DNA of 63,562 nucleotides, taken from Nitrososphaerota archaeon. GTDB lineage: Archaea > Thermoproteota > EX4484-205 > JAAOZP01. The notes beneath the pieces were generated by a model. It made no database searches and was not told the origin of the DNA. It saw nothing but the letters and a program-made list of their open reading frames with translations. The position numbers and the translations under genes are program-made. This document shows positions 16,385 through 63,309 of this stretch, piece after piece. Location of the stretch: NCBI GenBank assembly GCA_011605725.1, contig JAAOZP010000016.1, forward strand, positions 1-63,562. The letters run 5' to 3'. The number at the start of each line of letters is the position of its first letter. Positions within the stretch are counted from its first letter, which is position 1.

Positions 16385-16396
16385 TAGCGCGCGCTA
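16385..16396. repeat. palindromic TAGCGCGCGCTA, member of a dispersed (GC)n motif family
   Basis: Same 12-mer at 33930-33941 and inside 62019-62032; variants at 17321, 17419, 38328, 58762. Confidence 0.7.
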
Positions 16397-16576
16397 AGAG
16401 TTAAGAGAAGTAAGCGAATAGACACCTCATGACGCTGTCTCACACTTAGATGCAACAGCCCTATCGGAAAAATCCTGGTTTGGAGAATTATAACGATGCT
16501 GCTTCTAAAACTAAAAACTACGTTGACTCTCAAAAAATAAAGACAACCGTTAAGGACGCCGGAGGAAATCTACGCA

Positions 16577-16906
16577 TCACTCGATTTTAAGTAACAGTGA
16601 GCCTCCCTCATTAATCACTTGGTAAGATGGATCATCATTGATCTTGGTTTTAAAAAATGGAACCCTCGGTCCTGAAACAACCTTACCAGTGGCCACGTCA
16701 AACTTCGCTTTGTGCCTCGGGCAGGTTACAACACTACCCTCCAGAGAACCCTGTGAAAGATCGCCGCCAGCATGAGTACATCTAGCTCCAATAGCGTAGT
16801 ATTTTCCGTCAACGTTAATTATTAAGAACTCCTTATCCCCAACGGTGACCTTCTTCATCTTGCCCGGAGCAAGCTCGGATAACTCGCCAATCTTTACGAT
16901 GACCAT
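16577..16906 (-). CDS. Rieske-type [2Fe-2S] ferredoxin
   Basis: CTHAG...CPRH ligand motifs. Confidence 0.92.
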   Translation of the reverse strand: MVIVKIGELSELAPGKMKKVTVGDKEFLIINVDGKYYAIGARCTHAGGDLSQGSLEGSVVTCPRHKAKFDVATGKVVSGPRVPFFKTKINDDPSYQVINEGGSLLLKIE

Positions 16907-17061
16907 GGCTACCCCTCTGCTTCTTATCACCAGACTATCTTTATCTGCTTTTCCCTATCGTAAGCTCGACGATATATAAATGATGATAACAGGGACGAAG
17001 GCTCTTACGCGCGCCTCGTGTTCCTTTAAGTGCGCACAGTCCTCTCTCAAAATTCAGGAAG

Positions 17062-17076
17062 AGAAAGATTTTTAAT
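17062..17076 (+). promoter_or_regulatory. BRE-TATA promoter of tRNA-Asn
   Basis: AGAAAGA-TTTTTAAT about 25 nt before 17101. Confidence 0.55.
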
Positions 17077-17108
17077 CACCCATTATTCAAAACTAGTCTA
17101 GCCGGCGG

Positions 17109-17242
17109 GCCGGCGTAGTGCGCGTGCGCGTAGCTCAGCAGGTAGTTCAACAGCCTAGAGCAGCGGGCTGTTAACCTAATTGGACAGATACCCGTTGGTC
17201 GGAATCGCTTGGACGCCGAAAGTTCGAGTCTTCCCGCCGGCG
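17109..17242 (+). tRNA. tRNA-Asn(GTT) with four introns: 10/11 (17119-17133), 22/23 (17146-17158), 37/38 (17174-17189), 52/53 (17205-17221)
   Basis: Spliced: GCCGGCG TA GCTC AGCAGGTA GAGC A GCGGG CT GTT AA CCCGT TGGTC GGAAG TTCGAGT CTTCC CGCCGGC G; each intron forms a 4-bp BHB helix. Confidence 0.87.
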
Positions 17243-17462
17243 CTAGTGTATATTTATATTTTTTAAAACTAAGACAGGAAGATGTTCATAAGCTATGACG
17301 ATTTCTTTTAGAGGATTATTTAGCGCACACGCTAACCGTCCGAGGGAATTTCTTGGAAAGATATTGATGTAGAAACCGATTATAACCTTTTTTTGAGGCT
17401 AAGAGAGTTTTGTAGGAACTAGCGCACGCTAGAAGGTTAAAGAAAGGAGTAAAAGATAGTAG

Positions 17463-18044
17463 CTAAAGGAGATTCGCCGCTTCTTCAACGATATCTATCG
17501 CCTTATCAATCATCGTAATCTTCTCTTCATCATTCATACCCTTGGAATCAAAGGACGCAATAAAATGGAACCTGTCTCCTTCGCTTCTGAGCGGGATATA
17601 AAAGATTATCTTGATCCCGCTCTTTCTGGTTAACTCCTCCGCGATCTCGTCGGCGTGTCTCAGCCAGTCGACTAATTTCTTCGAAGCCTTTTCAACCTCT
17701 TTCCATTTCTTCCTATCGCATATCATGTCCCACAGCTGGAAGGTGTCGAACATCCAGCGCTTCCGGCGGGACTCCCGCTCTAAGTAACCGTCAATAACTT
17801 CGGAGGGATCTCCTCGTGTTGGAGACCAGATGAAGATTCTGCCTTCAACGTCCTCATGCACCTCAGGGTATGCCCCACTACCTCTTACACACCATTTAAG
17901 CTTGGTTCCTTCGGGGAATTTGAAGTGAGGTTCCTTCTCTATATAATAGTCCGGTGGACTTAACCTCTCTCTTATAACCTCTGGGATATCGTACCGCTTG
18001 CGCAGGTGTTCCTTCACCCTCACTGCAAACTCATCCTCATTCAA
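17463..18044 (-). CDS. putative immunity protein for the upstream nuclease toxin
   Basis: TTGA overlap with giant ORF; C-half (DEIAEELTRKSGIKI..FIASFDSKGMNDEE) homologous to 37551-38210. Confidence 0.7.
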   Translation of the reverse strand: MNEDEFAVRVKEHLRKRYDIPEVIRERLSPPDYYIEKEPHFKFPEGTKLKWCVRGSGAYPEVHEDVEGRIFIWSPTRGDPSEVIDGYLERESRRKRWMFDTFQLWDMICDRKKWKEVEKASKKLVDWLRHADEIAEELTRKSGIKIIFYIPLRSEGDRFHFIASFDSKGMNDEEKITMIDKAIDIVEEAANLL

Positions 18045-28550: not shown

Positions 28551-28735
28551 GCCCGATTAGGTGAGTTACAATGCCGCTGTTTGGGAAGAAGAAGGAGCCT
28601 CCCTTCGGATAAATCGTGAAAGCGCGCGCGCTCCCTGTGAAACCTCGTGGTTTAAGGGGACTTGATGTTAAAATCGCGTGTTTGAGCTAAAGCGTTGTTT
28701 CCTTCTCTGTAACTCCCATGTAGAGAAGGTTGTCT

Positions 28736-29776
28736 TTAACCCCTATGGTAGACTTCAGGGTTTAACAGGTGCACCGGCTTGTCGCCGTCTAGGAACCTGA
28801 ACAGGTCCTCAACAATCATGTTTGACTGTCGCTCTACAGTCTCCTCAGTATTCCCCCCGATGTGCGGCGTCACGATAACGTTATCAAGTGCTAAAAAGGG
28901 GTTTGAAGAGTCTACCGGCTCGTTCTCCTGCACGTCCAAAGCCGCACCCGCAATTCTGCCTTGTCTCAAGGCTTCTAGAAGAGCCGAGTCGTCAACCGTG
29001 CCGGGAGACGAGGTGTTGATTATGATGGCTGCCGGCTTCATCAAGGATATCTTCTCCCTCCCGATTATGTGGTATGTTTCATCTGTAAGCCTCACGTGAA
29101 GCGTGATAATATCCGCCTGCTCGACAAGTTCATTTAGGCTAACTCTCTTCCCTCCAACCGAAGCTATCTTCTCATCGGGAACGTATGGGTCGTAGACCAT
29201 TATTGAGGCTCCGAAGGCCAGAAGGATTTTCGCAACCCTTGTCCCTATATCTCCAAGCCCAATTATCCCTACTTTTTTACCATGTATCTCCCTGCCCTGC
29301 AAAGCGTTGTAAACCTCTTGAAAATCCCTATCCGCCTCATATCTTACACCCTTCTCCAGCCTGCGCTGAGCATAAACTATTTTCCTCAGAAGCGCCAGCA
29401 TCAGGCCCACCGTGAATTCAGCAACGGCCTGTGAATTCCTCATGGGTGCGTGCACCACCGGTATTCCCTTCATGGTTGCTGCAGCCACGTCAACTGCATA
29501 CGGGGTTCCTCTGCAGGCTCCGATAAACCTAAGATTAGTATTGTTTATGATGTCAGCCGTCACCTGGTCCGCTTCCACAACCAGTATTTCAACCCCGTTT
29601 TCATTAATCTTCTCTATCAGTTCGTCTCCGAGGTAAATCCTCCCTGTTTTCCTCCAGTCTTCATATATTACTTCAACCCGCTGCGAGAGCTTTGCTAGAG
29701 CCTCCCGTGTGAAGGATGCGGTTATCAAACATCTAGGCCTTTCAGAAGTCAACCATGCTTCAACCATCGTTTTCAA
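28736..29776 (-). CDS. D-2-hydroxyacid dehydrogenase (PGDH-like)
   Basis: GIIGLGDIG, NSQAVAE, AGAALDV..EP, TPHIGG. Confidence 0.9.
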   Translation of the reverse strand: MKTMVEAWLTSERPRCLITASFTREALAKLSQRVEVIYEDWRKTGRIYLGDELIEKINENGVEILVVEADQVTADIINNTNLRFIGACRGTPYAVDVAAATMKGIPVVHAPMRNSQAVAEFTVGLMLALLRKIVYAQRRLEKGVRYEADRDFQEVYNALQGREIHGKKVGIIGLGDIGTRVAKILLAFGASIMVYDPYVPDEKIASVGGKRVSLNELVEQADIITLHVRLTDETYHIIGREKISLMKPAAIIINTSSPGTVDDSALLEALRQGRIAGAALDVQENEPVDSSNPFLALDNVIVTPHIGGNTEETVERQSNMIVEDLFRFLDGDKPVHLLNPEVYHRG

Positions 29777-31257
29777 CCCTTAGAGTAGGGAAGCCACCAC
29801 ATCCTAGTCGGCTCCCTCATCTTGTTTATGCAGATCTGCCTAATGTTCACCATTTCTAGGAGCCCGTACCTCGATGAGTGTCTCCCGACTCCGCTCTGCT
29901 TAACTCCTCCCCATGGGGCATGCGGAAATGTCACCGCGACGTCGTTAACCCAGACTATTCCAGACTCTATTTCTCTAGACAGCCTGACCGCCTTCTCCTC
30001 ATCCACCGTCCATATGGAGGCCCCTAAGCCGTACTTAGTGGAGTTAGCAATCAAAATCGCTTGTTTTTCGTCACGAAAAGGAATCACGGGTGCTACTGGC
30101 CCGAATATTTCTTCAGACATTACTTTCATCGAGAGACTGACGTCTGTGAGAACCGTAGGACTATAAAAGAATCCTTTCTTGAATTCTCTAGGCAGAGATC
30201 CTCCACACATGACTCTTGCTCCTGCTGAAACAGCCTGCTTAACGGCACGCGAAACATATGCGCGTTGCTCCCTGCTTATTAACGGCCCGATATCTGTTGA
30301 CGGTTCAAAGCCGTTTCCAACCTTCAGCGATGAAGCCTTTTCCACAAACATTTTCACGAAATCGTTGAAAACATTCTCCTGCACCAGTATTCTCTTAGCG
30401 GAGACGCATATCTGGCCTGCTCCGAAAAACCTGCCGTAAACTGCTCCGTTAACCGCCTCCTCCATGTTTGCGTCATCGAAAACTACGAAGGGGTCGCTGC
30501 CCCCCAGTTCCAGCACCGTCCTCTTAAACTCTTTCGCACAGTTCAAGGCAACTTGAACCCCAGCCTTGCTACCGCCCGTGAACACCACGGCTTTCACATC
30601 TGTTCCGACCAGCATTTCGCCAACCCTCCCACCGCCCTGCACAAGATTAAGCACGCCACGTGGCAATCCCGCTTTTTCGAACAGCTCAACTATCTTCTCG
30701 CCAACCATGGCTGTCAGGGAAGAGGGCTTGAAGACCACAGAGTTCCCGGCTGCTAATGCGGGCATGATTGTCTGAATAGGGATTAAGAAGGGCCAGTTCC
30801 AAGGAGATATGACCGCCACAACGCCCAGGGGTTCGAACGTGATCCTGAACTCGTAGTTCCCGGGTTGAGGGAAATCCACAGTCCTAGTCTCATCCCTCAG
30901 CATTTGCGCAGCCTCCGCCCCATAGTACTCAGCGTACATCTGAGCCCCCGTAACCTCCATGTTGGATTCAACCAGAGGCTTCCCGTTCTCCAGGGTTATT
31001 ACGCTTGAAATCTCATCCATCCTATCCATTATAAGCTGCCCCACCTTCTTCAGCAGCTCAGCCCTCTGCTCCACCGGTGTACGACTCCATTCATAGAAGC
31101 CTTTCTTAGCTGAATCAAGGGCGTTTTTTAAATCAGACGCTCTGACGCTCGCCACTTTATGTATTAATTCCTCAGTGGCCGGGTTTAACTTCGGGATTCT
31201 CTCTCCACTTGGAACCACCCATTCCCCGTTGATAAAAGAGCGGATTATGTTCAACAC
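29773..31257 (-). CDS. NAD(P)-dependent aldehyde dehydrogenase
   Basis: PWNWP, FTGG, LELGGSDP, GQICVS, EEIFGP. Confidence 0.93.
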   Translation of the reverse strand: MLNIIRSFINGEWVVPSGERIPKLNPATEELIHKVASVRASDLKNALDSAKKGFYEWSRTPVEQRAELLKKVGQLIMDRMDEISSVITLENGKPLVESNMEVTGAQMYAEYYGAEAAQMLRDETRTVDFPQPGNYEFRITFEPLGVVAVISPWNWPFLIPIQTIMPALAAGNSVVFKPSSLTAMVGEKIVELFEKAGLPRGVLNLVQGGGRVGEMLVGTDVKAVVFTGGSKAGVQVALNCAKEFKRTVLELGGSDPFVVFDDANMEEAVNGAVYGRFFGAGQICVSAKRILVQENVFNDFVKMFVEKASSLKVGNGFEPSTDIGPLISREQRAYVSRAVKQAVSAGARVMCGGSLPREFKKGFFYSPTVLTDVSLSMKVMSEEIFGPVAPVIPFRDEKQAILIANSTKYGLGASIWTVDEEKAVRLSREIESGIVWVNDVAVTFPHAPWGGVKQSGVGRHSSRYGLLEMVNIRQICINKMREPTRMWWLPYSKG

Positions 31258-31309
31258 TTGGAAGAAGCCGTTACGATATTTAAGTTTTTAAGATTGGGGT
31301 GTTTCATGA

Positions 31310-31687
31310 TTGACACAAGAGTTAAATATCGGGAAACAAAAATATGAGGCTATGCCGACTAAGGAGCAAGTATTCGAGTCCCTAGAGGAAATAAGGAGAA
31401 AGTTTGAAGATCCAAGCGTTAAGGAGAAATTTAAAGGCTTCAAGAGAGATATACAGTTTAAATTCCCCGATCTGAATGCCCAATATGTTCTCAGCATCAG
31501 CGAGGACGCTACCGCAACCCTTAAAGAGGGCTTTTTAGAAAAGCCTCACGTGACGGTTGAAACAGATAGTGCAACATTCCTCGGTATAAGGAGCAAGACG
31601 ATAAGTGCAACGCAGGCCTACATGTCTGGAAGGTTAAAAGTGAAAGGCTCTATGCCCGATCTTCTGAAGCTTCAAAAACTCATGTAG
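31310..31687 (+). CDS. SCP2 sterol/lipid-binding domain protein
   Basis: ATQAYMSGRLKVKGSMPDLLKL; true start may be ATG 31352. Confidence 0.88.
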   Translation: MTQELNIGKQKYEAMPTKEQVFESLEEIRRKFEDPSVKEKFKGFKRDIQFKFPDLNAQYVLSISEDATATLKEGFLEKPHVTVETDSATFLGIRSKTISATQAYMSGRLKVKGSMPDLLKLQKLM

Positions 31688-31691
31688 TTTT

Positions 31692-32336
31692 TCAAAGCAT
31701 CATCGTCCTGAACAATTCCCGCCCGATTTCAACAGCCGATTCCGGCAGGCTTATAGGTGAACCAACCGCCTTCGCGAGCAGAAATATGGTTGAAGCCTTC
31801 TCGAGGAGCAGAGCCTTATGAAAAGCATCTTTAAGATCCTTGCCACACACAACTGCACCGTGATTCGCGAGCAGAACAGCGTTTCTCTGCATCAAGCCGT
31901 CAGCAACATTTGACGCTAATTCCTCAGTCCCAGCCATAGCGTATTTGACAGTCGGAATGTTCTCTCCAAGAAAGGGGATTAGCTCCTCCAGAAAAGGAGG
32001 TATTGTCTCATGGAGAGAAGCAAGTGCCGTCGCGTGCACCGAGTGAAAGTGGATCACGGCATTTACATCAGGCCTCTTAGAGTATATCAGGAGGTGCATT
32101 CCAGTTTCAACCGACGGGTTTCGACTCCCCTTAATCACGTCGCCAACCCCGTTCACGACAAGTGTATCTCTGGCCTTTATCTCGAAACGCGGGATCTGAC
32201 TCGGAGTGATTACATACCTGTCGGCAACCCTGCTCCTAGCGCTGACGTTTCCCTCGTGGTCTAACACATACCCGATCTTGTAGAGGGTCCTTATGGTCCT
32301 CGCAACCTCCTCCCTCACAAGCTTGAAAGGGTCCAT
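31692..32336 (-). CDS. class II aldolase (FucA-like)
   Basis: GNVSAR, ITPS, PSVETGMH, HFHS, LANHG. Confidence 0.9.
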   Translation of the reverse strand: MDPFKLVREEVARTIRTLYKIGYVLDHEGNVSARSRVADRYVITPSQIPRFEIKARDTLVVNGVGDVIKGSRNPSVETGMHLLIYSKRPDVNAVIHFHSVHATALASLHETIPPFLEELIPFLGENIPTVKYAMAGTEELASNVADGLMQRNAVLLANHGAVVCGKDLKDAFHKALLLEKASTIFLLAKAVGSPISLPESAVEIGRELFRTMML

Positions 32337-32338
32337 CT

Positions 32339-33832
32339 TCAAAGGAGGCCTTGCAGCTTGTCGTATATAAGTCTCCACCTCCTGTAATCAGCCTGGTAAC
32401 CTTCAGAATCAGAAGCCGGGTTCCTGGTTTTTAACTCAACCATCCTTTCAACTATGCTCCTCGGGCTCTCAGACCTTAGGAAAGACCAGCATGCGACGGA
32501 AGCACCGATGGGGCTTGCCCTGCGCTCCGAAGGCGTTGCAACAGGCATTGCCAATACGTCGGCCAGAATCTGGATGAGAACATCGCTGTTCGACAGCCCG
32601 CCTGAGGCAATAATGGGCGTACAGGCCTCGGGAAAAACCTCCTTCATCTGATCCATGTTGCCCCTGCATGCAAATGCAATATTCTCGTAGTATGCTCTCG
32701 CGATATCGCCTGCCCCAGGTCTTTCCCCCACCATTAATGAGGGCAGGATCATCACAGCCGGAGATACTTCCATGAACCTTTTAGCATCCATTATCCACGG
32801 GCCCAGGAATGCTAGGATGTTCCGACTACCCCTTACAGATGAAGCGGCAAGCTCATCAAAGCGGCGGTAGTCAACACCGTCTTCATTCCTAAGCATAAGC
32901 ACTGAGGAGGCGAGCCAGTCGAAAATGCTTCCACACATTCCAGAGTTGCTCTCCAATATCCATAGACCGTCGAGCGGAAAACACCCTGTCCACATCCGTT
33001 TCTGCTTATCGACGCGTGGCTCTGACATTACGATTTGTAATGGAGCAGTTGAGCCCAGCGAGATATAGGCTTGGCCGTTTGAAAGAGCCATCGACCCGAT
33101 GCCTGCGCATTGCGTATCGCCTGCCCCCATAATAACAGGAGTCTCTGAAGATATTTGAGCGGCCTTCCGGAACTCCTCAGTCGGGTAACCTATAAGCTGG
33201 CCGAAACCACGGACCTCAGGCAGTTGTTCAGGCTTCACACCGACGGCTTCACATATTTCCTCACTCCATCTCCGCCTGCTTATGTCGAACAAATAGGTTC
33301 CCGCTGCTTGCGACGGTTCTTCAGCAGGATTGCCCGTCAGCATGAAATAAACCCAGCCTTCTATTGTGGTGAAAAACTTCGCGGCGCTAAACACCTTGGG
33401 ATCGTTCTCGATGAACCACCTTATTCTGCTTCCGGAGAAGAGGAAAGGCGGATGGAGACCTGTGGTTAGATATGCATCCTCGCCGAAAGAATCGGTGAAA
33501 ACATCTTCAACCTCAGCACCCCTCGCGTCTACGTTGGGGCAGAGCGCCAGCGTCCTCCCGTCGCGCCCTATGACGGCTGTTGAAAACCTCTGCCCCGTAG
33601 TCGTAACCGCGGAAATCCTTGCTTCAGCCTGCCTCGCACAGTCTGCTGCTGTACTGCAAATGGAGGACCACAGCTCCCCGGAGTCCAATTCGACTATGTA
33701 GGGACGGTTCGGAAAGGGCAGCAGCTTCTTCAGCAGGCGAGTGGAGGAACTTACTATATGTCCTGATTCAGATATCAACCTGGAGTGGACCGCGCGCGTA
33801 GTTAGTTCTATGACCAGAACGTATTCCTCCAT
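32339..33832 (-). CDS. FGGY-family carbohydrate kinase
   Basis: TGQR, DARG, SQAAGT, GDTQ, SLGST, SGGLSNS. Confidence 0.88.
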   Translation of the reverse strand: MEEYVLVIELTTRAVHSRLISESGHIVSSSTRLLKKLLPFPNRPYIVELDSGELWSSICSTAADCARQAEARISAVTTTGQRFSTAVIGRDGRTLALCPNVDARGAEVEDVFTDSFGEDAYLTTGLHPPFLFSGSRIRWFIENDPKVFSAAKFFTTIEGWVYFMLTGNPAEEPSQAAGTYLFDISRRRWSEEICEAVGVKPEQLPEVRGFGQLIGYPTEEFRKAAQISSETPVIMGAGDTQCAGIGSMALSNGQAYISLGSTAPLQIVMSEPRVDKQKRMWTGCFPLDGLWILESNSGMCGSIFDWLASSVLMLRNEDGVDYRRFDELAASSVRGSRNILAFLGPWIMDAKRFMEVSPAVMILPSLMVGERPGAGDIARAYYENIAFACRGNMDQMKEVFPEACTPIIASGGLSNSDVLIQILADVLAMPVATPSERRASPIGASVACWSFLRSESPRSIVERMVELKTRNPASDSEGYQADYRRWRLIYDKLQGLL

Positions 33833-33939
33833 GATTTACTCTATGCACCCCCCCTTTAAAATCCTTATTTTATAAGGTAAGCGAAAAGAAGCGCGCTAAG
33901 ACTTACGGGGGGCCACGCTTCTACCGATCTAGCGCGCGC

Positions 33940-34900
33940 TACACGATGTACGACACGATGCCTGCTGACGAACCCGGGTGGAAAGCGGACCCTTTCGCAG
34001 GAGAGATACTTAGGGTGGGCCCTTCGTGGAGACGCTGGTAGCCAGAGGCGCGCGCGACCCTGGGAGTTAAGGGAATAATCTATTTTGAGCTTGAGCTCGA
34101 CGGCAAGGAATGGGGGAAAGGCCCTACGGAGTTCGGCATACACGGCAGCAACAAGGCTTGGGTAGACAGCCCTGCTTGGAGAATGGTGAAGGCTCTTTCA
34201 ACAATGGTTGACGAAACCGGTAACAGGGTTCTTATCCAAGGCTTCTACGACGACGTTAGGGTTCCAAGCGAGGAGGACGAGGCTCTCCTCAGCAGGCTGG
34301 CTGGAACCTTCGACGAAAATGAGGTTAAGGAAAGGATGAAGGTGGGGGCGCTTCATAGACGATCTGCACGGAGTCGAGGCTCTTAAGAAGCACTTGTTCT
34401 CACCAACCCTTAATATTGACGGATTATGGTCCGGATACACTGGGCCAGGCTCAAAGACACTCCTGCCTCACAGGATGACTGTGAAGATGGATATTAGGCT
34501 AGTGCCAGAGATGCAGGTTGAGAAGACGAGCCTGGTTAGAGAACACTTGGATAAGCATGGGTTCAGCGAGATAAAGATAAGGAGGCTTGAAGAAGGCTAC
34601 GGCTGGACTAGGATGAGCGTCAACTCACCATACTCGAAGGCCATGTTGAAAGCACTTGGCGAGTTTAAAGTGGAGGTTGAAGTCTGGCCCACAATAGCTG
34701 GAAGCACACCTTTCTCAATGTTTGCAGCACCACCCCTTAAGCTGCCTTTCATAGTTGGAGGAATGGGGCACGGCGGCCCAGCGCACTCGCCCAACGAGTA
34801 CCTGGTTATAAGCGAGAGAGGACCAACCGGGGGTCTTATGACGATGGAGAAGTCTTTCGCCGCAATACTCGACCATGTTTCAACGATAAGGAAGCAGTAA
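33940..34900 (+). pseudogene. M20-family metallopeptidase pseudogene (truncated, internally deleted, frameshifted)
   Basis: MYDTMPADEPGWKADPF..LVARGA / TLGVKGIIYFELE..HGS..PAWRMV / PTLNIDG..YTGPGSKT..AHSPNEY spread over several frames. Confidence 0.85.
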
Positions 34901-35256
34901 TAATTTGAGAGCCGCTAGCACCTGGGTTGCAGGATAGTTACGCATGCCGCGCGCTTGAGTTAGGAAGGCCGTCTATGCTTATTCAGCTAATTTCCTCTTT
35001 AAAACGCTACTGATTCTTAACAGGCACGCTAAATCCCTGAGCCTCCCGCTTTCCAGGTATAGCCCGAAGCATCATTCTTCGGATAAAAATAGAGTACTAT
35101 GATTCGAGACGCTTTTTACCTTCATTCGATTGGAGAGTGTAGCCTGAGGCATTAACACGCGTTTTCAAAACCATTTCTCCGCCTTTTAATGGGTAAAGCT
35201 TGATCTGAAAAACGGCTTGAAAAATTTTATTAACTTTGTAGGAAACCTGTTTAAAC

Positions 35257-36378: not shown

Positions 36379-36752
36379 ACCAGTCTGAGCCTTAGCACGC
36401 GCCTTTAGTTTTCATCTTGCCAATCCCGCTTACCAGTATGAACTGGGATGAGAAAATCGTTTTTAACGCGTGCTAAGCTCTTGCCTAACGATGTTTAAAC
36501 CGTTCGATGCCGGGTTATTTTCACCCAGTCCTCTCCCACAAGCATCTGCCTACTCCAGATTTTAGAGGGTTTTCACGGGGATTTTGGACGAGTGCTTGCT
36601 GAGGATGTTGACACGTTTAGCCTGCTACTGTAAGGAGGCTCAGGAAAAATCTCAATTCAGTCTTGTCGTCTATGTTAAGAGTATCGAGAACAAGATAACA
36701 GGATTCTACTCGTCGATTCTAATTTCCGATGCTCAGCTTGCAAACGCGCGCG

Positions 36753-36836
36753 AGATCTCAGTCTCTCGTTTCTTAGCTTCTCCTCCTCTGAGAGCATGAT
36801 GTAAGCCTTACCCCCGGGTTCAATCCTGTAATACTG
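36753..36836 (-). pseudogene. 84-bp diverged copy of part of 27585-28067, bounded by (GC)n tracts
   Basis: QYYRIEPGGKAYIMLSEEEKLRNER vs QYYSIGPEGKAYIMLSGEDAERLRNER. Confidence 0.85.
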
Positions 36837-37554
36837 GCGCGCGCTACTGGGCTGCGATGCATTAAAGGAGCTGGAAGAAGGCGTTGGAAGCAAGTACGGG
36901 ATCCTCGTTGGATTCGACGGTGGAAAGAAGGCATATTGCGGCGCCAAGGAGCTCAAGATTGATATACCTGAGGGCGCGAGCAAGATAGAGTGGATAAAAG
37001 TAGTCTCTATTGAGGATGAGGTAACTCTTCTCCTCCACGAGATAATAGAGATGCGGGCGGGGGGAAATCTGGGAGAAAGGGAACTGGGAGAAATGAATTA
37101 TAAAGTGGGAGTGGCCAGCGAACATATCGTGATTGAAGGATATGGGAAGATAAACTATCAGAGAGATATCCTCAAAGCTTTCTCGGAGAAGTCCGGGATC
37201 CCTATGGATGCGCTCGAGGGCAAGGTGAAATTTATCCGTCGCGGCGGAGGCGGAGAAGTCGATGGCGAGATCTTAGCTCTAGAGGACATTATAGTCGATG
37301 GTGAAGTGGTATTTAAGAAGGACGATGTAATAGCTATAATAGAGATGAAGTCGACGATAACCGGGAAAAGCTTTGAGGAGCTACTTGGCGGTGCAATGGA
37401 GGATCTTAAGAACCACCTTCAGTTCGATAAGTATAAGAACGTTAAATATGGTATAGCCATAGGTTTCTCATACGATCCAAAAGAGGTGCTTGCGGAAGAG
37501 CCGGGCGTGCCCCCGCTCATAAAGGTGTATACGAGGGGTGAACTCGAGGGATGA
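36832..37554 (+). CDS. orphan toxin C-terminal cassette (pre-toxin segment + PD-(D/E)XK-like nuclease), 5' truncated
   Basis: Frame open 73 codons upstream of ATG 37051, with FDGGKKAYCGAKELKIDIPEGASKIEWI matching the giant protein; EVDG..IIEMKS motif. Confidence 0.75.
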   Translation, partial: YWRALLGCDALKELEEGVGSKYGILVGFDGGKKAYCGAKELKIDIPEGASKIEWIKVVSIEDEVTLLLHEIIEMRAGGNLGERELGEMNYKVGVASEHIVIEGYGKINYQRDILKAFSEKSGIPMDALEGKVKFIRRGGGGEVDGEILALEDIIVDGEVVFKKDDVIAIIEMKSTITGKSFEELLGGAMEDLKNHLQFDKYKNVKYGIAIGFSYDPKEVLAEEPGVPPLIKVYTRGELEG

Positions 37555-38210
37555 GCGTGGTTGAGAGGCTGAGGGCTTTGCTAGCTGAGAAGTTCGAGCG
37601 CAGGCCGTGGGAGAAGGTTGAGCTACTGCCTCCTCACCCTCCTGAGAAGTGGGTGATAGCTGTTAGGATATTCTTCGAAATCTTCATCACAGCGTACGAG
37701 AATGGAAAGATAAAAGTCGATGCCGGCCCAGAGCGGACCTGGGACGGAATATCCGAGTTCTACCTCTGGAGGAAATACAAGCGGAAGTACGAGAAGGCGG
37801 TGACCGAGGAGGAAAAGAAAAGGATCTTACAAAAGGAGAAGGAGGAGGAAGACAGGATCATCGAGGACTTCAAGCAGAGGAGGTTCGAGGATTACATCAA
37901 GAAAGGGAGAACCATCGCGTACTTCGCTGGGCGTCATATGTGGGGCGACGAGGTAGCTAGGAGGGTTAGCGAAAAGCATGGCATCGAGGTCAAGTTCGAG
38001 ATAGACACTGAATCGGGCTTCATCACGACCTTCGACTCAACAGGTATGGGCGACGAGCAGTTAATCAACGAGACCATGAAGAGGGTTGACGCTATTAACG
38101 AAGCCAGGGAGATGTTTTTCAATAAGGAATTGGAGAACGAATTCTTGGCTAGCAAGGGGATAGAGGTTAAGAGGAAGCGTAGCAGGCGAAGACGAGTTTC
38201 GAGAGGCTGA
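37551..38210 (+). CDS. putative immunity protein
   Basis: ATGA overlap with nuclease cassette; homologous to 17463-18044. Confidence 0.75.
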
Positions 38211-38677
38211 AGCTAAGCGCGCACGAAAAGGCTGGCGTCGAAACTTGGCGCGCTAGCGCGCGCGCTGGCTCGATCCTCCTTGCCCCCTGGAAAACCGGAG
38301 TAGCACGACAGCTTCACCGAGACTTTTTAGCGCACGCGCTTAACATAACGTTTGTCGCAAACTTTACTTCCCTTTTACACCATGATTTCTGGGGCGTAAT
38401 AAACGTCCTAAATTCTACAAGTGGTAGTACGTTAGCTCATGGGGTTTTCTCCGCTTTCAACTTCCCAAAACTCGCGATAAGCAAAATAGACGTAAGCGGA
38501 AATCCAGCCGCATACAATGTGACAGAAGTCTTGGGTAACAGCACTATTACTTCCGGCTTTTTAGTGTGGCGCGCGCGCTCGCTAATTGAAACCGGGAGTA
38601 GACCCAGAAAAAGCTCAAATTTTACGTTAAAACATTAACAAAAGATATAAAAAAGAGGCCTAATAGAATTCTCTTTG

Positions 38678-48452: not shown

Positions 48453-48459
48453 ACGAAGC

Positions 48460-52066: not shown

Positions 52067-52069
52067 CAC

Positions 52070-55387: not shown

Positions 55388-55491
55388 AAAAATAGTAGTT
55401 GCGACGCGCGCGCTCTTTTTTAATGTAGTGCACACTAGAATAGGAAAGACTAGCAGCTTCATATTGAAGTATCAAAATATTTAATAAACAG

Positions 55492-55663: not shown

Positions 55664-56317
55664 TTATGGTTTCACGGGCTTCATGCTGGCGCAGATTTCT
55701 ATGATCTCTTCCTCTGTCAGGACGGGTGCGAACCCGAAGAGATAGTTTAAGGAGCCGATCTTAATGACTACACAGTATGAGTATTCTGTACCGTATTTCA
55801 AACGGTATTCTTCATGACCGACTGGCATTTTGCTGAGATGAATGCCGTCCACTCGCCCACCTTGTCGAACCTGTCGGTTGTTTGTGCTGTTGCGCACAGA
55901 GAAGGGTATTTCTGGCATGGGTGTTATTTCTATACCGATTTCCGCGGTTGCAATGGCGGTGTCTCCGGTGTTGCTGTAAAGCACTATTATGGGGAAGCTA
56001 ACCTGCCCGTCGAGAACCTCAGCCCATATGGCTGTGAGCTCCATCCCCTTCACCATTTTCGTGGGAAGATAGAGGGTAAGCCCTCTCTTTGCCAACTGGT
56101 TAACCACAGTATCCAGAGTGACGATCTCGCCGGGAAATGGTGCAATGCCACGTTTCGAAGCATTCTGCACAGTAGAGTCTGGGGCTGGGCCCGGGAGCTG
56201 CTTTGACACAACGTAGTTCCCTACGATTATGCTCATAGTCATGGCTGCTAAAAGCACCGTGAGGGGCATATTTTCAATTCGAGCCATCAGCCACCACCCC
56301 AAGCGCGCGCTCTCCAC
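55664..56317 (-). CDS. membrane-anchored hypothetical protein (DUF4367-like ends)
   Basis: N-terminal TM, LYLPT..G, LTEEEIIEICASM. Confidence 0.55.
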   Translation of the reverse strand: MESARLGWWLMARIENMPLTVLLAAMTMSIIVGNYVVSKQLPGPAPDSTVQNASKRGIAPFPGEIVTLDTVVNQLAKRGLTLYLPTKMVKGMELTAIWAEVLDGQVSFPIIVLYSNTGDTAIATAEIGIEITPMPEIPFSVRNSTNNRQVRQGGRVDGIHLSKMPVGHEEYRLKYGTEYSYCVVIKIGSLNYLFGFAPVLTEEEIIEICASMKPVKP

Positions 56318-56731: not shown

Positions 56732-58018
56732 CTATTTGAGTATGCCAACTACTCCGCCGAAGCCCTTTTGGAGCATCATCCCCTCTTCCGTCGCCGTAGA
56801 TATTAGCTCGAGCTGAACGTTTTTCTGAGAAGCGATTTCGATGAAACGGTCAAGCAGGCTTTCTTTCTCGGCGACATACAGGCTTGTTGAACCGCATTTT
56901 GGACATGGTGTTGAAGATACTTTCGCCGGAAGAGCGATCAGCTCTTGGAACGGATGTTGCTCAACAGCCGCGTAGTCGCATTTTCCGCATTTAATCTTGA
57001 CCCTGAATATGTCGAGAGCTTCTGAGAAAAGTATGAGCTTGACCTTTCCGCTTTGAACCGCGTTCTCAACTTCTTTAAGCCCGTAGACAACCTTGTCCGG
57101 CTCAGTGCTCACGAGCTTAAGGAAGCTGCCCACCAGGTTCCTCTCCTTTATTAGGTCGAGCTCCTGAAGCTTTTCAGACGCTTTCCCCAGTATCTCCTTT
57201 ATGCCCTGGTGACCCGTGTATGAAGTGTCCACCACTGCCAGTATCTTTCTCCTAAGCTCGTAGTGAATGAAATCTTTTTCGAGGAACATTTCCTTCGTTG
57301 GCCCAGGTCCACCAACTATCAATCCTTTAACATCAGTGTTCTGAAGGTAAATCTCGTTCAGACGCTCGGCGACACGCCTGTAGAAATCGTTAAGCTCCAT
57401 CTCCCTGAGTCTTTCAAATCTTCTGGCTGACTGGCCTCCCTTGCTAGTCTTACCAGGGACGCCGGAGGTCAACTCGTCTTTCACGTCGATATTTCTACCA
57501 GATGCGAGGGCAATCGTCGCCTCAGAATTATCAATAGACAGAATTAAATACTTATCCTTCTTCTCAAGCATCTCTTTAAGAGGTTCAACGTAAAACTTGT
57601 CGTCGCAGCCATAGTATGAGAGGGTTATTTTTTCAGGAGGCTCTATTACGTGGATCTCAATATTTTCTGAACCAGGGGTCTCCCCCGGAATGGCTCCGCA
57701 GAATATGACTAGCCCGTTTTCAGGAGCCTCGTCATAAAGCTTAAGCCTCTGCTGAACCTTGACAATAGCGTCCTGAACATTTTTCCTCGTCGTTCTAGAC
57801 TTAATGTTTGACGCTTTCCCATACTCCTCCCTCAGGTTCGTCATCACCTCGCTTATCCTTCTCCCCGGAGGAATGTAGAGGCTGATCAGCTCAGTTCCAC
57901 GCCCCCTTTTTTCAGAGAGCTCTCTAAGAGTCCTTCTCGAAATATACTCCTTCACCGATGTTGCAAGCGTTTTTTCACTCAAAACAGGGTTCTCCGGGGA
58001 GACCTCGCTAAACCCCAT
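56732..58018 (-). CDS. prf1: peptide chain release factor aRF1 with Zn-ribbon insertion
   Basis: GTELISLYIP, NIKS, GGQSARRF, CxxC..CxxC. Confidence 0.96.
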   Translation of the reverse strand: MGFSEVSPENPVLSEKTLATSVKEYISRRTLRELSEKRGRGTELISLYIPPGRRISEVMTNLREEYGKASNIKSRTTRKNVQDAIVKVQQRLKLYDEAPENGLVIFCGAIPGETPGSENIEIHVIEPPEKITLSYYGCDDKFYVEPLKEMLEKKDKYLILSIDNSEATIALASGRNIDVKDELTSGVPGKTSKGGQSARRFERLREMELNDFYRRVAERLNEIYLQNTDVKGLIVGGPGPTKEMFLEKDFIHYELRRKILAVVDTSYTGHQGIKEILGKASEKLQELDLIKERNLVGSFLKLVSTEPDKVVYGLKEVENAVQSGKVKLILFSEALDIFRVKIKCGKCDYAAVEQHPFQELIALPAKVSSTPCPKCGSTSLYVAEKESLLDRFIEIASQKNVQLELISTATEEGMMLQKGFGGVVGILK

Positions 58019-58054
58019 ATATTAATATTTCACTTCCTAGGGGGTAAGAGGTAA

Positions 58055-58747
58055 ATGAAGATAGTGTTGAAAATAGGGCACGCCCTCTTCAAGGGGCATT
58101 CGATAGACTTGGAGAGGATTCGGGGAACTGTTGACGCGGTTCTAAGGCTGTATAACGCGGGGCATAAGGTGGTTGTTGTAGTCGGCGGCGGTGAGCCCAG
58201 TAGGACCTACATAAAGGCGGCCAGAAGCCTTGGGGCGGACCATGCTACTTGCGACGAGATGGGGATAATGGTCACCCGGCTGAACGCCCTCCTGCTCTCC
58301 ATAGCTTTTGGAGAGGCTGCGAGCAGAAGTATTATAGGCAGTTTTGAAGATCTTGAGAAACAGCTGGATGCAGCTGGGAGTAAAATAATTGTCGGAGGAG
58401 GGTTTACTCCCGCTCAGTCTACAGACGCTGTTGCAGCACTCATAGCTGAAAGAATGAAAGCCGATCTCCTGATAAAGACTACTGATGTCGACGGTGTTTA
58501 CAGCTCCGATCCAGATAAAAACCCGGATGCGAAACTGCTTAGAGAAGTAAGCATTAGAAGACTCAGGAAAATACTTAGCAAGGGGGAATCGAAACCAGGG
58601 GAATACCGGCTTCTAGACCAGGTTTCCCTCTCGATACTTGAGAGGTCAAGAATACCGGTTGTAATCGTAAACGGCTCAGACCCTGAAAACATCGTTAGAG
58701 CAGCCTCAGGGGAGAAAGTAGGCACGAGAATAACCTATTCTGGGTAA
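58055..58747 (+). CDS. pyrH: uridylate kinase
   Basis: VVGGG, DEMGI..TRLNA, STDAVAA, DVDGVYSSDP. Confidence 0.93.
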   Translation: MKIVLKIGHALFKGHSIDLERIRGTVDAVLRLYNAGHKVVVVVGGGEPSRTYIKAARSLGADHATCDEMGIMVTRLNALLLSIAFGEAASRSIIGSFEDLEKQLDAAGSKIIVGGGFTPAQSTDAVAALIAERMKADLLIKTTDVDGVYSSDPDKNPDAKLLREVSIRRLRKILSKGESKPGEYRLLDQVSLSILERSRIPVVIVNGSDPENIVRAASGEKVGTRITYSG

Positions 58748-58784
58748 ACGCTGCTAGCCAAAGCGCACGCTAACTCCGCTGCTC

Positions 58785-59030
58785 GCATTCCTCTTGCCAA
58801 CTACTCTCGCTGAGCTGGGAATAAGACCTAGCTGGCTATTGTAAGCCTGTCATCCTGCTTTAATACTCTTACAGTCTTCACTTGCGCGATGCTCGCTTTC
58901 ATCCTTGTTTTCTGCAATAGGCGTTTCTATAATGCTTCAAGCATGATAGTGCCACCACAAGCGGTAAGCCTTGTATCTGTAGTCTTATTCTTAGTCTTCG
59001 GCATCTATATGATTCTAACAAGGGGAAAAG
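58785..59030 (+). pseudogene. degraded UPF0016/GDT1-family membrane protein
   Basis: LAELG-(fs)-KT*LAIVSLS matches the ELGDKTQL motif; later LFLVFGIYMIL. Confidence 0.55.
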
Positions 59031-59188
59031 AGGGGTGTTTAGAGAAAACGATTCTGTAGCACGAGAGAGATGCATTTTTCATTCAAGAAGATTGAACAGC
59101 AGTTGCATCATCATCAAGCTGAATTAATAAATCTTGGAAGACAAGGCCAATGACAAGAGTTATGAAATAAAGCGGGAAGATGCTACTT

Positions 59189-61627
59189 TTACATTATACC
59201 GTATCTTCTGAATACTCGCACTTTTACAGGATCTATGCTTAATGTAAATATCGCTGAATATGTTAATGCTACAATGGTTTTATCCAATCCTATTGGTGTT
59301 AGCACGAACCTGCTCGTTCCTAAAACAATAAACACTGCTAAAACGCCTGCAATAGACAGAGTCAATTCTTTTCCTGGTCTGGATTTCCAGAATTCTCTTC
59401 TTTCTCTTACAATCATGATTCTAAATTGACTTGTAAATACCATTATAAGTAAAATGAAAGTTTGCATCTGTTGTAACGTAAATCGATATATTGCTGATCC
59501 GACAAGTATTGCTATAAGGCCCTCTACTAAAAGTAAAGAACCGAGAATAGATGATGCATACACAATATCCTTTACCCTCCATTTGCTTGGATTTGTTGCC
59601 GGTGTTGCGTTGTCTGTTGCAAGAGACATTGTTGCAAAGTCATTTGAAAATACGAGCAACGTCATGCCTAAAAGCGAGATTATATCATATCTCAATATGA
59701 AGAATCCTATTGCGAGCAGTAGCGTGAACTGCACCGTCTTCGTAATCTTGTTTATGATCCATGTCAGAGCTCTTTGATAAACCTCTCTACCTGTCGCTAG
59801 AATATCTACAACACCTTCTAATCCAAACTTAAGTAAAACAGCGCCTGCAGAAGCCTTCGCAACGTCAGTTGCATTTGCAACAGCTATACCGAGTTCAGCT
59901 TGTTTTAATGCTGGCGCATCGTTAACACCATCACCCATAACACCAACTATGTGTCCTTTGGCCTGAAGGCTCTTGACAATTATATACTTATCCTCCGGAT
60001 AGACTTCTGCAAAGACACTGGCTTCCTCAATAACTTTGCCTTTATCATCTTCACCCGCCTTCCTAAGATATTCTCCTTTAACGATTTTTTTGCCAATGCC
60101 AACCTGCCTGGCTATTTCCTTAGCGATAAGCGCATTATCCCCTGTAACCATCTTGGGTTCTACGCCCAGTCTCTTAATGTTTTCTATAAGCTCTCTAGCA
60201 TTAGGCCTTGGAGAATCCACTAACGCTAATAATCCAGTAAATCTAAAACTAGCATCTTCTTTAACTGCTACGGCTAGAGATCTGTAGCCTTTCTCAGCCA
60301 GCTCCTCAGAAATCCTCATGGCTTCGGCTTTCTCGCTATCACTGGTCACAAGCTCCGCAACTATTTGCGGAGCACCTTTAACAACCACGAGCCTTTTACC
60401 ATTGGCTTCAACCATGGCTTCAGTCCTTTTTATCGATGGGTCGAATGGCTTGAACTCGATAAGTTCGTGTTTCCTCCTAGGTAACCCTTTAGATTTCGCG
60501 TATTCTACGACAATTTGGTCTATTAAATCCTTGCCATCTTGGCTAGAGGAGTAGAAAGCATGTTCTATAACATCGTCTACCGAATAGTTGTTAAAGGGTA
60601 TAACATTTACTATAGAAGACCTATTCTCCGTTATTGTACCGGTCTTATCAAGACACATAACGTCGATTGAGGCAGCATCCTCTATAGAGCCCAGTTTAGT
60701 TACTAGAACCTCCTTGGAGGCAAGCCTCATTGCACCTACAGCCTGCATAATGGTTAACACAGCAGGTAAAGCAACAGGAACAGCTCCCATTAGAATAGTT
60801 ACAGCAAACGTGACCAACGCTACAGGAGTATTTTTTAAACCCATCATAATAGCGAATACTAACGCTGCCACTATTGCCGCTACACCTATATACATGCTGT
60901 ACTTCGTTATTTGAAGCATGACTTCTTGTTGATGAGACTTTGGCTGAGCTGTTTTAACGAGCTCAACAGTCCTACCGAAATATGTGTTTTTACCAATATT
61001 GGTGATTACAGTCTTAACTTGTCCTCTTTTGAGAATTGACCCAGCATAGATCACGTTACCCACTGAAACTTCAACAGGGAGAGATTCCCCTGTCAACATA
61101 GACTGATCCACAAGAGCATTGCCCTCAATAATCTTGCAGTCAGCTGGAACGATATCGCCGAGACCCAGAGCAGCTATGTCCCCAGGAACGATAAACTTTG
61201 CATCCATAGTGATCCATTTACCATCTCTCAAAACCCTAGCCCCTATGGCCAGCTTGGACCTTAAAAGCCTCAGAACTCTCTCGCTCGTTCGAGTGTGACG
61301 GAAACCTATAAATGCATTAACAACTATTAGAGTAGCTATTATCAAAGCCTCAACATAATGCTCAATGATAATGGATAACACTATAGCCACTTCTAAAAGC
61401 CATGGCATAGGTCCCCACAGCCTTTTCAAAAAGTCATTTAGGAGACTCTTCCTCTCTTCTTCAACGTAGTTATAGCCGTAAATACGAAGCCTCCTTCCAG
61501 CTTCATCACTAGAAAGACCATCCACATCTGACTCAAGATACTTCAAAGTTTCACTTATACTCATCTTTTCGAATTCTTTGGACGGGATGAGTTTCATCAT
61601 GATAGCCTTCAGCTGTTGATTAACCAA
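59189..61627 (-). CDS. P-type ATPase, proton-efflux (IIIA) type
   Basis: WGPMPWLLE, TGES, PVALPAV, DKTGT, KGAP, TGD, GDGVNDAP, ND in TM6. Confidence 0.92.
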   Translation of the reverse strand: MVNQQLKAIMMKLIPSKEFEKMSISETLKYLESDVDGLSSDEAGRRLRIYGYNYVEEERKSLLNDFLKRLWGPMPWLLEVAIVLSIIIEHYVEALIIATLIVVNAFIGFRHTRTSERVLRLLRSKLAIGARVLRDGKWITMDAKFIVPGDIAALGLGDIVPADCKIIEGNALVDQSMLTGESLPVEVSVGNVIYAGSILKRGQVKTVITNIGKNTYFGRTVELVKTAQPKSHQQEVMLQITKYSMYIGVAAIVAALVFAIMMGLKNTPVALVTFAVTILMGAVPVALPAVLTIMQAVGAMRLASKEVLVTKLGSIEDAASIDVMCLDKTGTITENRSSIVNVIPFNNYSVDDVIEHAFYSSSQDGKDLIDQIVVEYAKSKGLPRRKHELIEFKPFDPSIKRTEAMVEANGKRLVVVKGAPQIVAELVTSDSEKAEAMRISEELAEKGYRSLAVAVKEDASFRFTGLLALVDSPRPNARELIENIKRLGVEPKMVTGDNALIAKEIARQVGIGKKIVKGEYLRKAGEDDKGKVIEEASVFAEVYPEDKYIIVKSLQAKGHIVGVMGDGVNDAPALKQAELGIAVANATDVAKASAGAVLLKFGLEGVVDILATGREVYQRALTWIINKITKTVQFTLLLAIGFFILRYDIISLLGMTLLVFSNDFATMSLATDNATPATNPSKWRVKDIVYASSILGSLLLVEGLIAILVGSAIYRFTLQQMQTFILLIMVFTSQFRIMIVRERREFWKSRPGKELTLSIAGVLAVFIVLGTSRFVLTPIGLDKTIVALTYSAIFTLSIDPVKVRVFRRYGIM

Positions 61628-61841
61628 ACGCTCGATTAAATACTTATTGCATAATAGTACATCAATAGATCATCCAGAAATTCGTTAGGATATAATGCTC
61701 TTAACATCATCTATTACCACGAGTTCGTCCTTATGGTGGGCGTAAAGGTCGTGTTCCTTTAGTATGATCCTCATCTCGACCTCTGCGGGAACCTCAAAAA
61801 CCTTAGATGCAAAGACAGTAAGCTTGTAGTATCGAGAAGAT

Positions 61842-62020
61842 TTTCTGCCCACTAAGCTGCCAAGGGGTGAAAGACAAAGAGTTGCTATCGCAAGGGCCTC
61901 GCCAACGACCCAAAGAACATCTTAGCAGATGAGCCAACTGGAAATCTCGATTCAGTTTCAAAGGCCTAACAAAAAAATGGAAGAACAATCGTCCTAGGGA
62001 CGCATGGCGAAGAAGTAGCT
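61842..62020 (+). pseudogene. LolD/MacB-type ABC ATPase fragment
   Basis: GERQRVAIARA-(fs)-LANDPKNILADEPTGNLDS..GRTIVLGTH, ending at CTAGCGCGCGCTAG. Confidence 0.8.
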
Positions 62021-62634
62021 AGCGCGCGCTAGGAACTGGACGTTTTACAATGAGCATGATCCTGTTAAGAGCTATGAGGACCACCATAGCGTGTGCAAAA
62101 TATTCAGAAAATGCGGAAATGCAAAAATGGCTCTGCTGAAGTATCGGGAAGAAGAAATAGTAAAAAGAATGCGCCATCCTGTGTTCATTAAGAAATTAGT
62201 GGGGAAACCTTCAATGAAGGAATAAACAACTTGTTGAGCAAACTGTTAATGCTAAAAGAAAAAGATACAAGTTGGTTGGTAATAAAGAATGAATTTGAGA
62301 GTTTAAAGCAGTTACCCTTGATTTATTCTTATCCTTATCTAAATAGGCAGAATGAACAGGATAGAGTCCTTATATGGAAAGGAGAGAATTTCAGGTTAAC
62401 AATTTGCAAGTTTTAAGAAAAATATCAGGTTATTAGAGGATTCATGAAACTAGGATCAGTACGCTAAGAACTAAGCTAATCTATGACCTGTAATATTTGC
62501 AACCGGTGCATATGCCAAGCCTTACGGCAAAGAAAAGAAGTGAACTATTCGGACAAGAAAAACACTATTAGGCACATTAGATATCCGTAAATCTTAAAAG
62601 CGGCTTCAAGACCCTATACTTGCACAGAAAACAG

Positions 62635-62767
62635 GCGGGGGTTGCCGAGCCAGGTCAACGGGACTAGACTAGAGGCGCTGGACTTAAGATCCAGTCCCGT
62701 AGAAAAATGCGGAAAGATTTAAATATATGCGCGGAAGGGTTCGTGGGTTCAAATCCCACCCCCCGCA
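62635..62767 (+). tRNA. tRNA-Leu(TAA) with D-loop intron (62659-62672) and variable-arm intron (62703-62736)
   Basis: GCGGGGG/CCCCCGC-A, CTGGA CT TAA GA TCCAG; BHB helices GGTC/GACT and CCGT/GCGG. Confidence 0.88.
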
Positions 62768-62810
62768 CTTCATTTGAAATATTCATATTAGCAATTCTTC
62801 AAAGTAATTA

Positions 62811-63213
62811 TTACTTGACTTTTATTCCTCTACTGACTAGGAATTCGTTCTCAAATTCCTTATTGAAAAACATCTCCCTGGCTTCGTTAATAGCGTCAAC
62901 CCTCTTCATGGTCTCGTTGATTAACTGCTCATCATCCATACCTGTTGAGTCGAAGGTCGTGAAGAATCCTGATTCGGTATCTATTCTGAACTCGACTTCT
63001 AAGCCATGTTTTTCGCTAACCCTCCTAGCTACCTCGATTCCCCACATATGTTTCTTAGCGAAGTACGCGATGGTCCCCCCTTCTTAATGTAATCCTCGAA
63101 CCTCCTCTGCTTGAAATCCTCGATGATCCTGTCTTCCTCCTCATCCTCCTTTTGTAAGATCCTTTTCTTTTCCTCCTCGGTCTTCGCCCCCTTGTACTTC
63201 TGCTTGTACTTCC
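62811..63213 (-). pseudogene. 5'-truncated, frameshifted paralog of immunity gene 37551-38210
   Basis: Near-identical protein ([51 protein letters not shown]); similarity begins at the (GC)n tract 63213-63220. Confidence 0.88.
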
Positions 63214-63309
63214 GCGCGCTTACAAGAAGCTTGGTTTAAAACGCGTCGTCTAGGTGGTTTAGTAAGGTTTTTAACGTCTTACCGTATTTTCCTGCATAGA
63301 CGTAATGGC

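Follow-up and report, generated by a model that had tools for sequence, protein, structure and literature searches.

The window and its GC tracts

The 63,562-nucleotide (nt) contig JAAOZP010000016.1 (the window, i.e. the whole stretch of DNA analysed) is contig C20 of G000, a hot-spring metagenome-assembled genome (MAG) of 2.23 Mb and 93% completeness from Ca. Brockarchaeota, a label borne by close homologs of G000. It carries toxin-like modules, an interrupted M20 peptidase gene, copies of tRNA 3' ends, a relic of a primase gene and, among these, numerous short tracts of alternating GC. The tracts are best read as scars of a Ku-independent end joining that places one fixed self-complementary linker on broken ends. 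The initial annotation had listed 18 such tracts, all of which are present at most 3 nt from the positions that it gave, and among the origins that it offered for them end joining with filler has become the best reading. The last 141 nt of the window (63422-63562) are identical to the end of contig C12 and another contig (L014) crosses the join; C20 and C12 are therefore adjacent.

The filler is new at the junction

Very probably a fixed filler is laid down at joints. At 34048 nine bases stand for 230 bp of the intact gene of a sister species (G002), at 27666 eight bases stand for 227 bp of the L414 allele, and at 27074 there is a pure 19-nt insert with nothing lost relative to L414. In contigs L415 and L418 position 17861 is joined to 35053 via (GC)5, both partners being intact in the window. 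Neither a tract nor a precursor is seen in 94-99% identical alleles at 16385, 27074, 27666, C7:381934 and 17861/35053, so that the choice between filler and pre-existing microhomology falls to filler. Pieces of 55-170 bp from elsewhere lie between two linkers (e.g. 36753-36836), and contig C9 holds a captured 69-bp copy of window positions 865-933 at 97% identity. The new linker, nested in TA(GC)4TA, joins ends that are deleted, inverted, uninterrupted or foreign.

The six homology breaks named at the outset hold, 33930 and 34048 against G002 and 36745, 36837, 62019 and 63213 against paralogs, and further breaks coincide with the tracts at 16385, 27074, 27666 and 28537. The supposed enrichment at breakpoints is likewise borne out: the density of homology ends at tract edges is 8.6 times that found 20-150 nt away (32 in 16 positions vs 61 in 262 positions; p 6e-17). 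By a hand tally ~36 of 59 junction halves have 1-4 nt in common with the linker, vs about a quarter by chance. Donors are mostly without TA at the break, deletions span 0 to kilobases, and a minority of junctions reuse an old tract (L414:18144 vs C19:31417). The sizes of captured fragments show only a broad excess at 30-130 nt; a 30-bp histone ladder was considered and rejected, a histone being present and a period near 30 absent (p 0.69). Against a general role, of 480 homology ends just 32 have a tract, and roughly half of the joints formed recently within the species are tract-free, showing 5-7-bp repeats or nothing. The linker route serves a subset of breaks.

The linker word

In G000 GCGCGCGC is the most over-represented 8-mer genome-wide, with 458 copies on both strands vs 14.9-15.9 expected from order-2/3 Markov models. 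The length of alternating runs has its peak at 8 (223, 108, 131, 35 and 31 runs of lengths 6, 7, 8, 9 and 10). G-start runs are preceded at -1 by A (287 of 342, 84%) and at -2 by T (168 of 342, 49%), with -3 unbiased; because the flank biases are at -1 and -2 only, each tract is taken as a nested piece of the 12-mer TA-GCGCGCGC-TA, i.e. TA(GC)4TA. The commonest form has TA on both sides (32 of 153 G-to-C tracts). Around 88 perfect A(GC)4T, variants show 61 internal transitions vs 15 transversions. Because one-mismatch variants are mostly transitions, the GC/AC variants (17321, 17419, 38328 and 58762) are regarded as C>T/G>A decay; linkers slip by 2 nt and decay via transitions after being laid down. 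Open reading frames (ORFs) of at least 200 aa, which make up 76% of G000, contain 25 of 308 tracts vs 53 of 72 same-composition control words.

Several features in the first description are thereby sharpened. The scarcity in intact genes, judged there by eye, stands far below composition controls. TA is part of the consensus flank and CTAG is not; the GC core is retained, the AC forms being decayed GC linkers and no separate class; and the proposed non-templated GC filler is filler, of one fixed sequence and not of random GC.

Taxonomic range

When linkers are counted as TA(GC)4 in the 17 species or genomes of the genus, nine species including G000 have 13-224 copies, a tenth has 5 and the remaining seven have 0-1. 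By DNA identity (82-85% vs 71-74%) the tract-rich Brockarchaeota appear to form a single clade. Among 221 sampled Bathyarchaeia genomes 25 (~11%) are tract-rich by a cut-off of at least 25 (GC)5/(CG)5 sites per genome and most have zero such sites; since this count overlooks genomes with mainly 8-nt tracts (G006-G009 score 0-2 by it), some "tract-poor" Bathyarchaeia may be wrongly classed. The TA-flanked word is identical in G043, G044, G067 and G119 (62% of the letters covered in G119, whose assembly contains N stretches), the tracts of G045 are T-flanked, and the word recurs in large-contig MAGs of unrelated studies. A phylum-wide draw of 301 genomes was nearly all empty, with G519 as a third-family case. 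G294, G461 (the same genome as G173), G449 and G501, with many (GC)5 and no TA excess, were left out as support, and G042 and G023, at 50-55% GC, are ambiguous. The process is thus not the lineage-specific one first supposed, the same 12-mer being present in ~11% of sampled Bathyarchaeia and in one further family.

An accessory primase as candidate writer

The unusual primase-polymerase that the initial annotation had thought worth seeking was found, as an accessory PriS-like primase of ~270 aa in the archaeo-eukaryotic primase (AEP) family. It is the candidate writer of the linker, a role for which the case is about evenly balanced. In G000 this second AEP gene (C7:379008-379796) overlaps the end of a second radA, the true PriS being at C11, and AEP relics lie on C12 and at window position 62030, directly after a linker. 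Members have 260-280 aa, full catalytic motifs and a conserved CxxC; D112 and D114 (DxD), S162-G163-G166-H168 (SGxxGxH) and D220 (the third acidic residue) are invariant. The motif-IV position is R223, or K in the G000 copy, as in motif IV (Arg/Lys) of the AEP-proper clade (PMC5862659). The predicted model (pLDDT 82) best matches PriS (1v33; Z 20.8, rmsd 3.0, 229 aligned) and next the polymerases of non-homologous end joining (NHEJ; 5dmu, Z 13.4). Motifs and PriS-like fold are those of the AEP-proper clade of the superfamily. In the tree the accessory AEP forms a clade separate from replicative PriS, and features of the latter are missing, the score being 36.6 bits vs an equivalog cut-off of 143.5 and priL being absent from the loci. 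As to a viral origin, no relative was found in IMG/VR by the query used.

Adjacency to radA is limited to Brockarchaeota. A dinB-radA2-AEP run occupies C7:376638-379796 of G000 (L038:10639-13797), with a decayed linker just ahead of dinB; dinB adjoins the pair only in G000 and in no other species. Directly upstream of a canonical radA2-AEP pair, the 4.1 kb of L340:767-4843 (Ga0080004_1134381) hold 18 linkers and include a series of gene pieces, each of 54-68 nt, from different loci. A 440-aa sister AEP with an extra C-terminal domain is found at L193:1429-2748 (G206) and L198:901-2223 (G185), both of these tract-rich genomes lacking the short family. A second family of small PriS-like proteins (260-290 aa; L120, L124, L145, L221-L228), common in Bathyarchaeia and Archaeoglobi, is found in tract-free and tract-rich genomes alike.

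Association of the primase with the linkers

All 10 well-assembled genomes with intact AEP are tract-rich. Within the genus at least 13 linkers are found in 7 of 7 AEP carriers vs 2 of 10 non-carriers, and among Bathyarchaeia 6 of 13 carriers vs 19 of 208 others are tract-rich (p 0.001), the intact copies (G043-G046) all being in tract-rich genomes. A deeper search recovered recognisable AEP relics in 3 of 18 tract-rich vs 0 of 21 tract-free genomes. At 72 metagenome loci with AEP there are 103 tracts vs 3.3 expected, and at PriS control loci 17 vs 22 expected, these controls being core regions that tracts avoid anyway; after clustering of AEP at 80% identity at least one tract is found in 9 of the 11 clusters having a contig of at least 4 kb. 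In Bathyarchaeia the link of Ku with tract-richness is weak and non-significant (p 0.10), and for DinB p is 0.83. On the AEP tree the two flank types, A(GC)nT and T(GC)nA, are grouped rather than scattered: they need 13 changes vs 23.1 when shuffled (0 of 200 as low) and fall into three groups of each type. Residue 141 is basic in every A-type group and in no T-type group, the sole such column among ten possible splits; picked post hoc from the alignment and with about a one-in-ten chance of arising so, it is at most a lead to the flank determinant.

A number of observations weigh against the primase as writer. The genus association is probably one event, Brockarchaeota counting as about one contrast because their tract-rich members look like one clade. 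No trace of the AEP family is found in 16 of the 25 tract-rich Bathyarchaeia (two of which have the 440-aa sister), among them G119, the richest in tracts, nor in G519, G009 and G010, and the truncated AEP carriers G149 and G181 are tract-poor. The AEP clades, and hence the flank pattern, may follow host ancestry. In the G000 copy itself 6 conserved columns deviate from the consensus, and its activity may be weak or lost. Loss of AEP after activity is plausible because AEP fragments far outnumber whole copies; when tracts were dated by decay, G119 was not separable from AEP carriers. In G041, labelled Nitrososphaeria, the gene is present with few tracts; its contig (L105) is Brockarchaeota-like, with the AEP gene, a frameshifted radA2 and neighbour genes 76% identical to Brockarchaeota genes, and may be mis-binned.

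Two observations concern Ku. Among the 25 tract-rich Bathyarchaeia the (CG)5:(GC)5 ratio is higher where Ku is present than where it is absent (Mann-Whitney p 0.0009, related genomes not being independent), which might reflect a shift of the filler phase by Ku or by lineage. On L209 (G218) the genes for Ku and the LigD polymerase domain are separated and flanked by GC tracts.

Alternative writers and origins

It is possible, if rather unlikely, that a core enzyme, most likely the replicative PriSL bridging discontinuous templates, writes the filler, some other repair change exposing the activity and AEP being a passenger or helper. PriS is in every tract-rich genome, G119 and G519 are linker-rich with PriS alone, and the Sulfolobus enzyme (SsoPriSL) shows terminal transfer, strand annealing and bridging of non-complementary ends in vitro (PMC3333859). 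However, ~89% of Bathyarchaeia and nearly all other sampled Thermoproteota have PriS and zero tracts, the Sulfolobus activity favours dC stretches over alternating GC (PMC3333859), and flank type tracks the accessory AEP tree, with DinB enrichment absent and that of Ku as weak as stated above.

That the 12-mer is made or captured by another mobile enzyme (be it a nucleotidyltransferase, a divergent polymerase or a resolvase), AEP merely sharing its gene pool, is improbable to a similar degree or slightly more so; most tract-rich Bathyarchaeia are without AEP. On the other side, RVT_1, Ku and PolX searches were empty in the genomes that each covered, and the shared genes near tracts of G000 and G119, on inspection, gave no DNA-processing candidate. 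RVT_1 was in 0 of 17 genus genomes, from which a very divergent reverse transcriptase could escape; Ku was not found in five tract-rich Brockarchaeota (G000, G002, G007, G008 and G016; 89-94% complete); and in G000 no PolX was over the cut-off and PolB numbered just two. Of the writers considered, reverse transcriptase, PolX, a further PolB, Ku, IS630 and DinB were each rejected, either for lack of a match in the searches or for lack of association with the tracts.

That the tracts are footprints of a cut-and-paste transposon whose ends are GC and whose target is TA, or else sites of a site-specific recombinase, is very improbable and largely refuted already. The prevalence of the form with TA on both sides and the reuse of existing tracts at some junctions speak for it; against it, donors mostly lack TA, deletion lengths vary as described, no multi-copy tract-bounded element or repeated inner flank was seen, and the IS630/DDE_3 transposase is in 0 of 5 tract-rich genomes. 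The recombinase site of the initial annotation is unsupported because the breaks fall at arbitrary positions and the intact alleles are site-free, and its excision footprint with TA/CTAG duplication falls with the donors and the missing transposase and element. About as improbable is it that tracts come first, by HIP1-like mutational growth, Z-DNA fragility or as protein-binding sites, and merely attract breaks: there is 2-nt slippage between strains, clustering, and a few ancestral tracts such as that at 33791, absent from the earlier list and ancestral coding sequence rather than filler, but the idea is refuted at sites with empty alleles (94-99% identity, no tract or precursor), and tracts, unlike HIP1, avoid coding DNA. 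Amplification or assembly chimeras, also raised initially and suggested by the genome being a MAG, have a negligible chance: independent JGI and ENA metagenome contigs 99% identical to the window have the same tracts and junctions, some differing by one GC unit, so that the tracts are no assembly artefact, and they are moreover decayed, common to several species and of the same word in large-contig MAGs of unrelated studies.

Proposed mechanism

With the accessory PriS-like AEP as linker writer, for which and against which the evidence is about equal, the following steps can be proposed. A stand-alone AEP (directly behind the second radA in Brockarchaeota) would make a short (GC)n-TA oligomer, the 3' end of which would base-pair with a resected end over 0-4 nt; after fill-in each end would carry an identical sticky GC tail, so that any two ends could anneal and be ligated. 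Direct tailing of each end would give the same scars, indistinguishable in these data. Precedents for such steps are the end bridging of SsoPriSL (PMC3333859), Tap (PMC5449611) and DRT3b (PMC13174585). The route would delete genes, capture fragments and often destroy its own gene, so that old scars would remain in genomes that lost AEP. More tentatively, the mobile primase may make the self-complementary linker under protein control, as a universal adaptor for any two ends; its clades might write A-type or T-type flanks, possibly through residue 141; and the whole could conceivably be a self-destroying system for genome shuffling and fragment capture that needs neither Ku nor a template.

Relation to known systems

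Ku/LigD NHEJ resembles the proposed route in having an AEP-fold polymerase (the LigD polymerase domain; Methanocella 5dmu, Z 13.4) acting at ends with microhomology and filler. Known NHEJ filler is variable, unlike the nested pieces of one fixed palindromic 12-mer here; moreover Ku was not found in the five Brockarchaeota named above, and the candidate resembles PriS more than it does the LigD domain. Telomerase-type healing adds a fixed sequence onto a broken end via few paired bases. The Streptomyces primase Tap, which restores a set telomere sequence (PMC5449611), likewise adds a fixed sequence at an end. However, telomerase and Tap cap ends and here ends are joined, a reverse transcriptase was not found in the 17 genus genomes and no terminal protein was seen. 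Sulfolobus PriSL, also an archaeal primase, can add nucleotides, anneal strands and bridge ends that are not complementary, but it is a core heterodimer studied in vitro, dC-favouring and with no fixed product (PMC3333859), whereas the candidate AEP is without adjacent PriL, patchy and mobile. The protein-templated poly(dCdA) of DRT3b (PMC13174585) is a precedent for an alternating dinucleotide made without a nucleic-acid template; DRT3b is an anti-phage reverse transcriptase and not an AEP, and its product is long free DNA not inserted at junctions.

Templated insertions of Pol theta and the N-/P-nucleotides of TdT copy local flanks or are random. Synthesis-dependent microhomology-mediated end joining gives deletion and insertion with 1-4 nt of microhomology, as here (PMC2943611); the difference from all three is the same word whatever the flank, in two archaeal classes. 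Lastly, among over-represented words, cyanobacterial HIP1 is spread through genes, mostly coding, and tied to a methyltransferase. It is likewise an 8-bp GC-rich palindrome (PMC3025956, PMC6604393), but the linker word avoids genes (by the ORF counts above) and appears at new junctions. Membership in Ku/LigD NHEJ, IS630/Tc1-mariner footprints, site-specific recombination (integron, shufflon), repeat addition by reverse transcriptase (telomerase, retron, DRT) or HIP1 fails on at least one tested feature in each case.

Toxin-like cassettes and other features of the window

The features of the window are collected in Table 1. The architecture of the toxin-like genes fits that of polymorphic toxin systems (a large carrier with a variable tip, an immunity gene and orphan tip-immunity pairs), with no family match; from this architecture they look like inter-microbial toxins. 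The larger module, with no Pfam or PADLOC match, is cut in L415/L418 by the (GC)5 junction 17861-35053, and the orphan tip resembles residues 895-1101 of a 1139-aa C19 protein by tblastn. As to the shuffling of toxin cassettes suggested in the initial annotation, one toxin-like cassette starts 2 nt after the 36837 linker and the 2445-aa module is cut by a linker junction in other strains; cassettes are just one substrate class among many.

GC filler interrupts or precedes two copies of tRNA 3' ends (27060-27110 and 62727-62770); in the first copy the break lies in the T-loop, the usual crossover place of integrases. The region 61650-62700 is gene debris; L013, L015 and L016 have there, after a P-type ATPase and behind a decayed linker, the feoAB iron-uptake operon.

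Table 1. Linkers, junctions and associated genes in the window
Feature	Position	Strand	Remarks
Complete linker TA(GC)4TA, recent junction	16385..16396	.	Same-species L414/L416 run on without tract at 16383
Decayed (GC)5 linker, two G>A changes	17321..17334	.	
Decayed (GC)4 linker, 98 nt from the 17321 linker	17419..17432	.	
Polymorphic-toxin-like module: 503 aa, 2445 aa with nuclease-like tip, 193-aa immunity-like gene	17463..26886	-	
19-nt filler in T-loop of tRNA-like copy, zero deletion	27074..27092	.	L414 allele uninterrupted
Linker in place of 227 bp (L414:16680-16906)	27666..27677	.	ORF 27432-28067 remains in frame
Linker where G002 homology ends, opening ~75-nt foreign piece	28537..28545	.	
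Linker closing the ~75-nt foreign piece	28621..28632	.	(GC)4 in other strains
Complete linker, M20 peptidase gene homology begins	33930..33941	.	G002 L020:6841; 3 nt common with donor
Linker in place of 230 bp of peptidase gene	34048..34056	.	G002 L020:6950-7179; 1 nt common per side
Left linker of captured fragment	36745..36752	.	
Captured 84-nt piece, 85% identity to 27974-27881	36753..36836	-	
Right linker of captured fragment; orphan toxin-tip-like frame begins 2 nt on	36837..36846	.	
Orphan C-terminal tip and 219-aa immunity-like gene	36847..38210	+	tblastn
Compound double linker	38248..38266	.	
Decayed (GC)5 linker	38328..38341	.	
Linker, (GC)5 in window vs (GC)4 in L017	38569..38579	.	
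Older linker, in part common to G002	55405..55414	.	
Linker, (GC)4 in window vs (GC)3 in three other contigs	56302..56311	.	
Decayed linker, fixed across all strains seen	58762..58771	.	
Complete linker opening relic of candidate primase gene	62020..62031	.	
~17-codon relic of accessory PriS-like primase	62030..62081	+	blastn to C12 relic, family hidden Markov model
Linker truncating copy of 219-aa gene	63213..63220	.	

Significance

The rejoining of ends in archaea without Ku and the homology-free capture of foreign DNA are poorly known, and literature searches turned up no fixed-sequence filler at junctions. The linker leaves a legible signature in about one tenth of the sampled Bathyarchaeia and in one Brockarchaeota clade, and events of rearrangement and capture can therefore be counted and dated. 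The small single-subunit candidate makes the question testable in vitro. Should the sequence prove to be set by the enzyme itself, DRT3b would have its first counterpart in the primase family, and the enzyme would be a natural tool for adaptor ligation.

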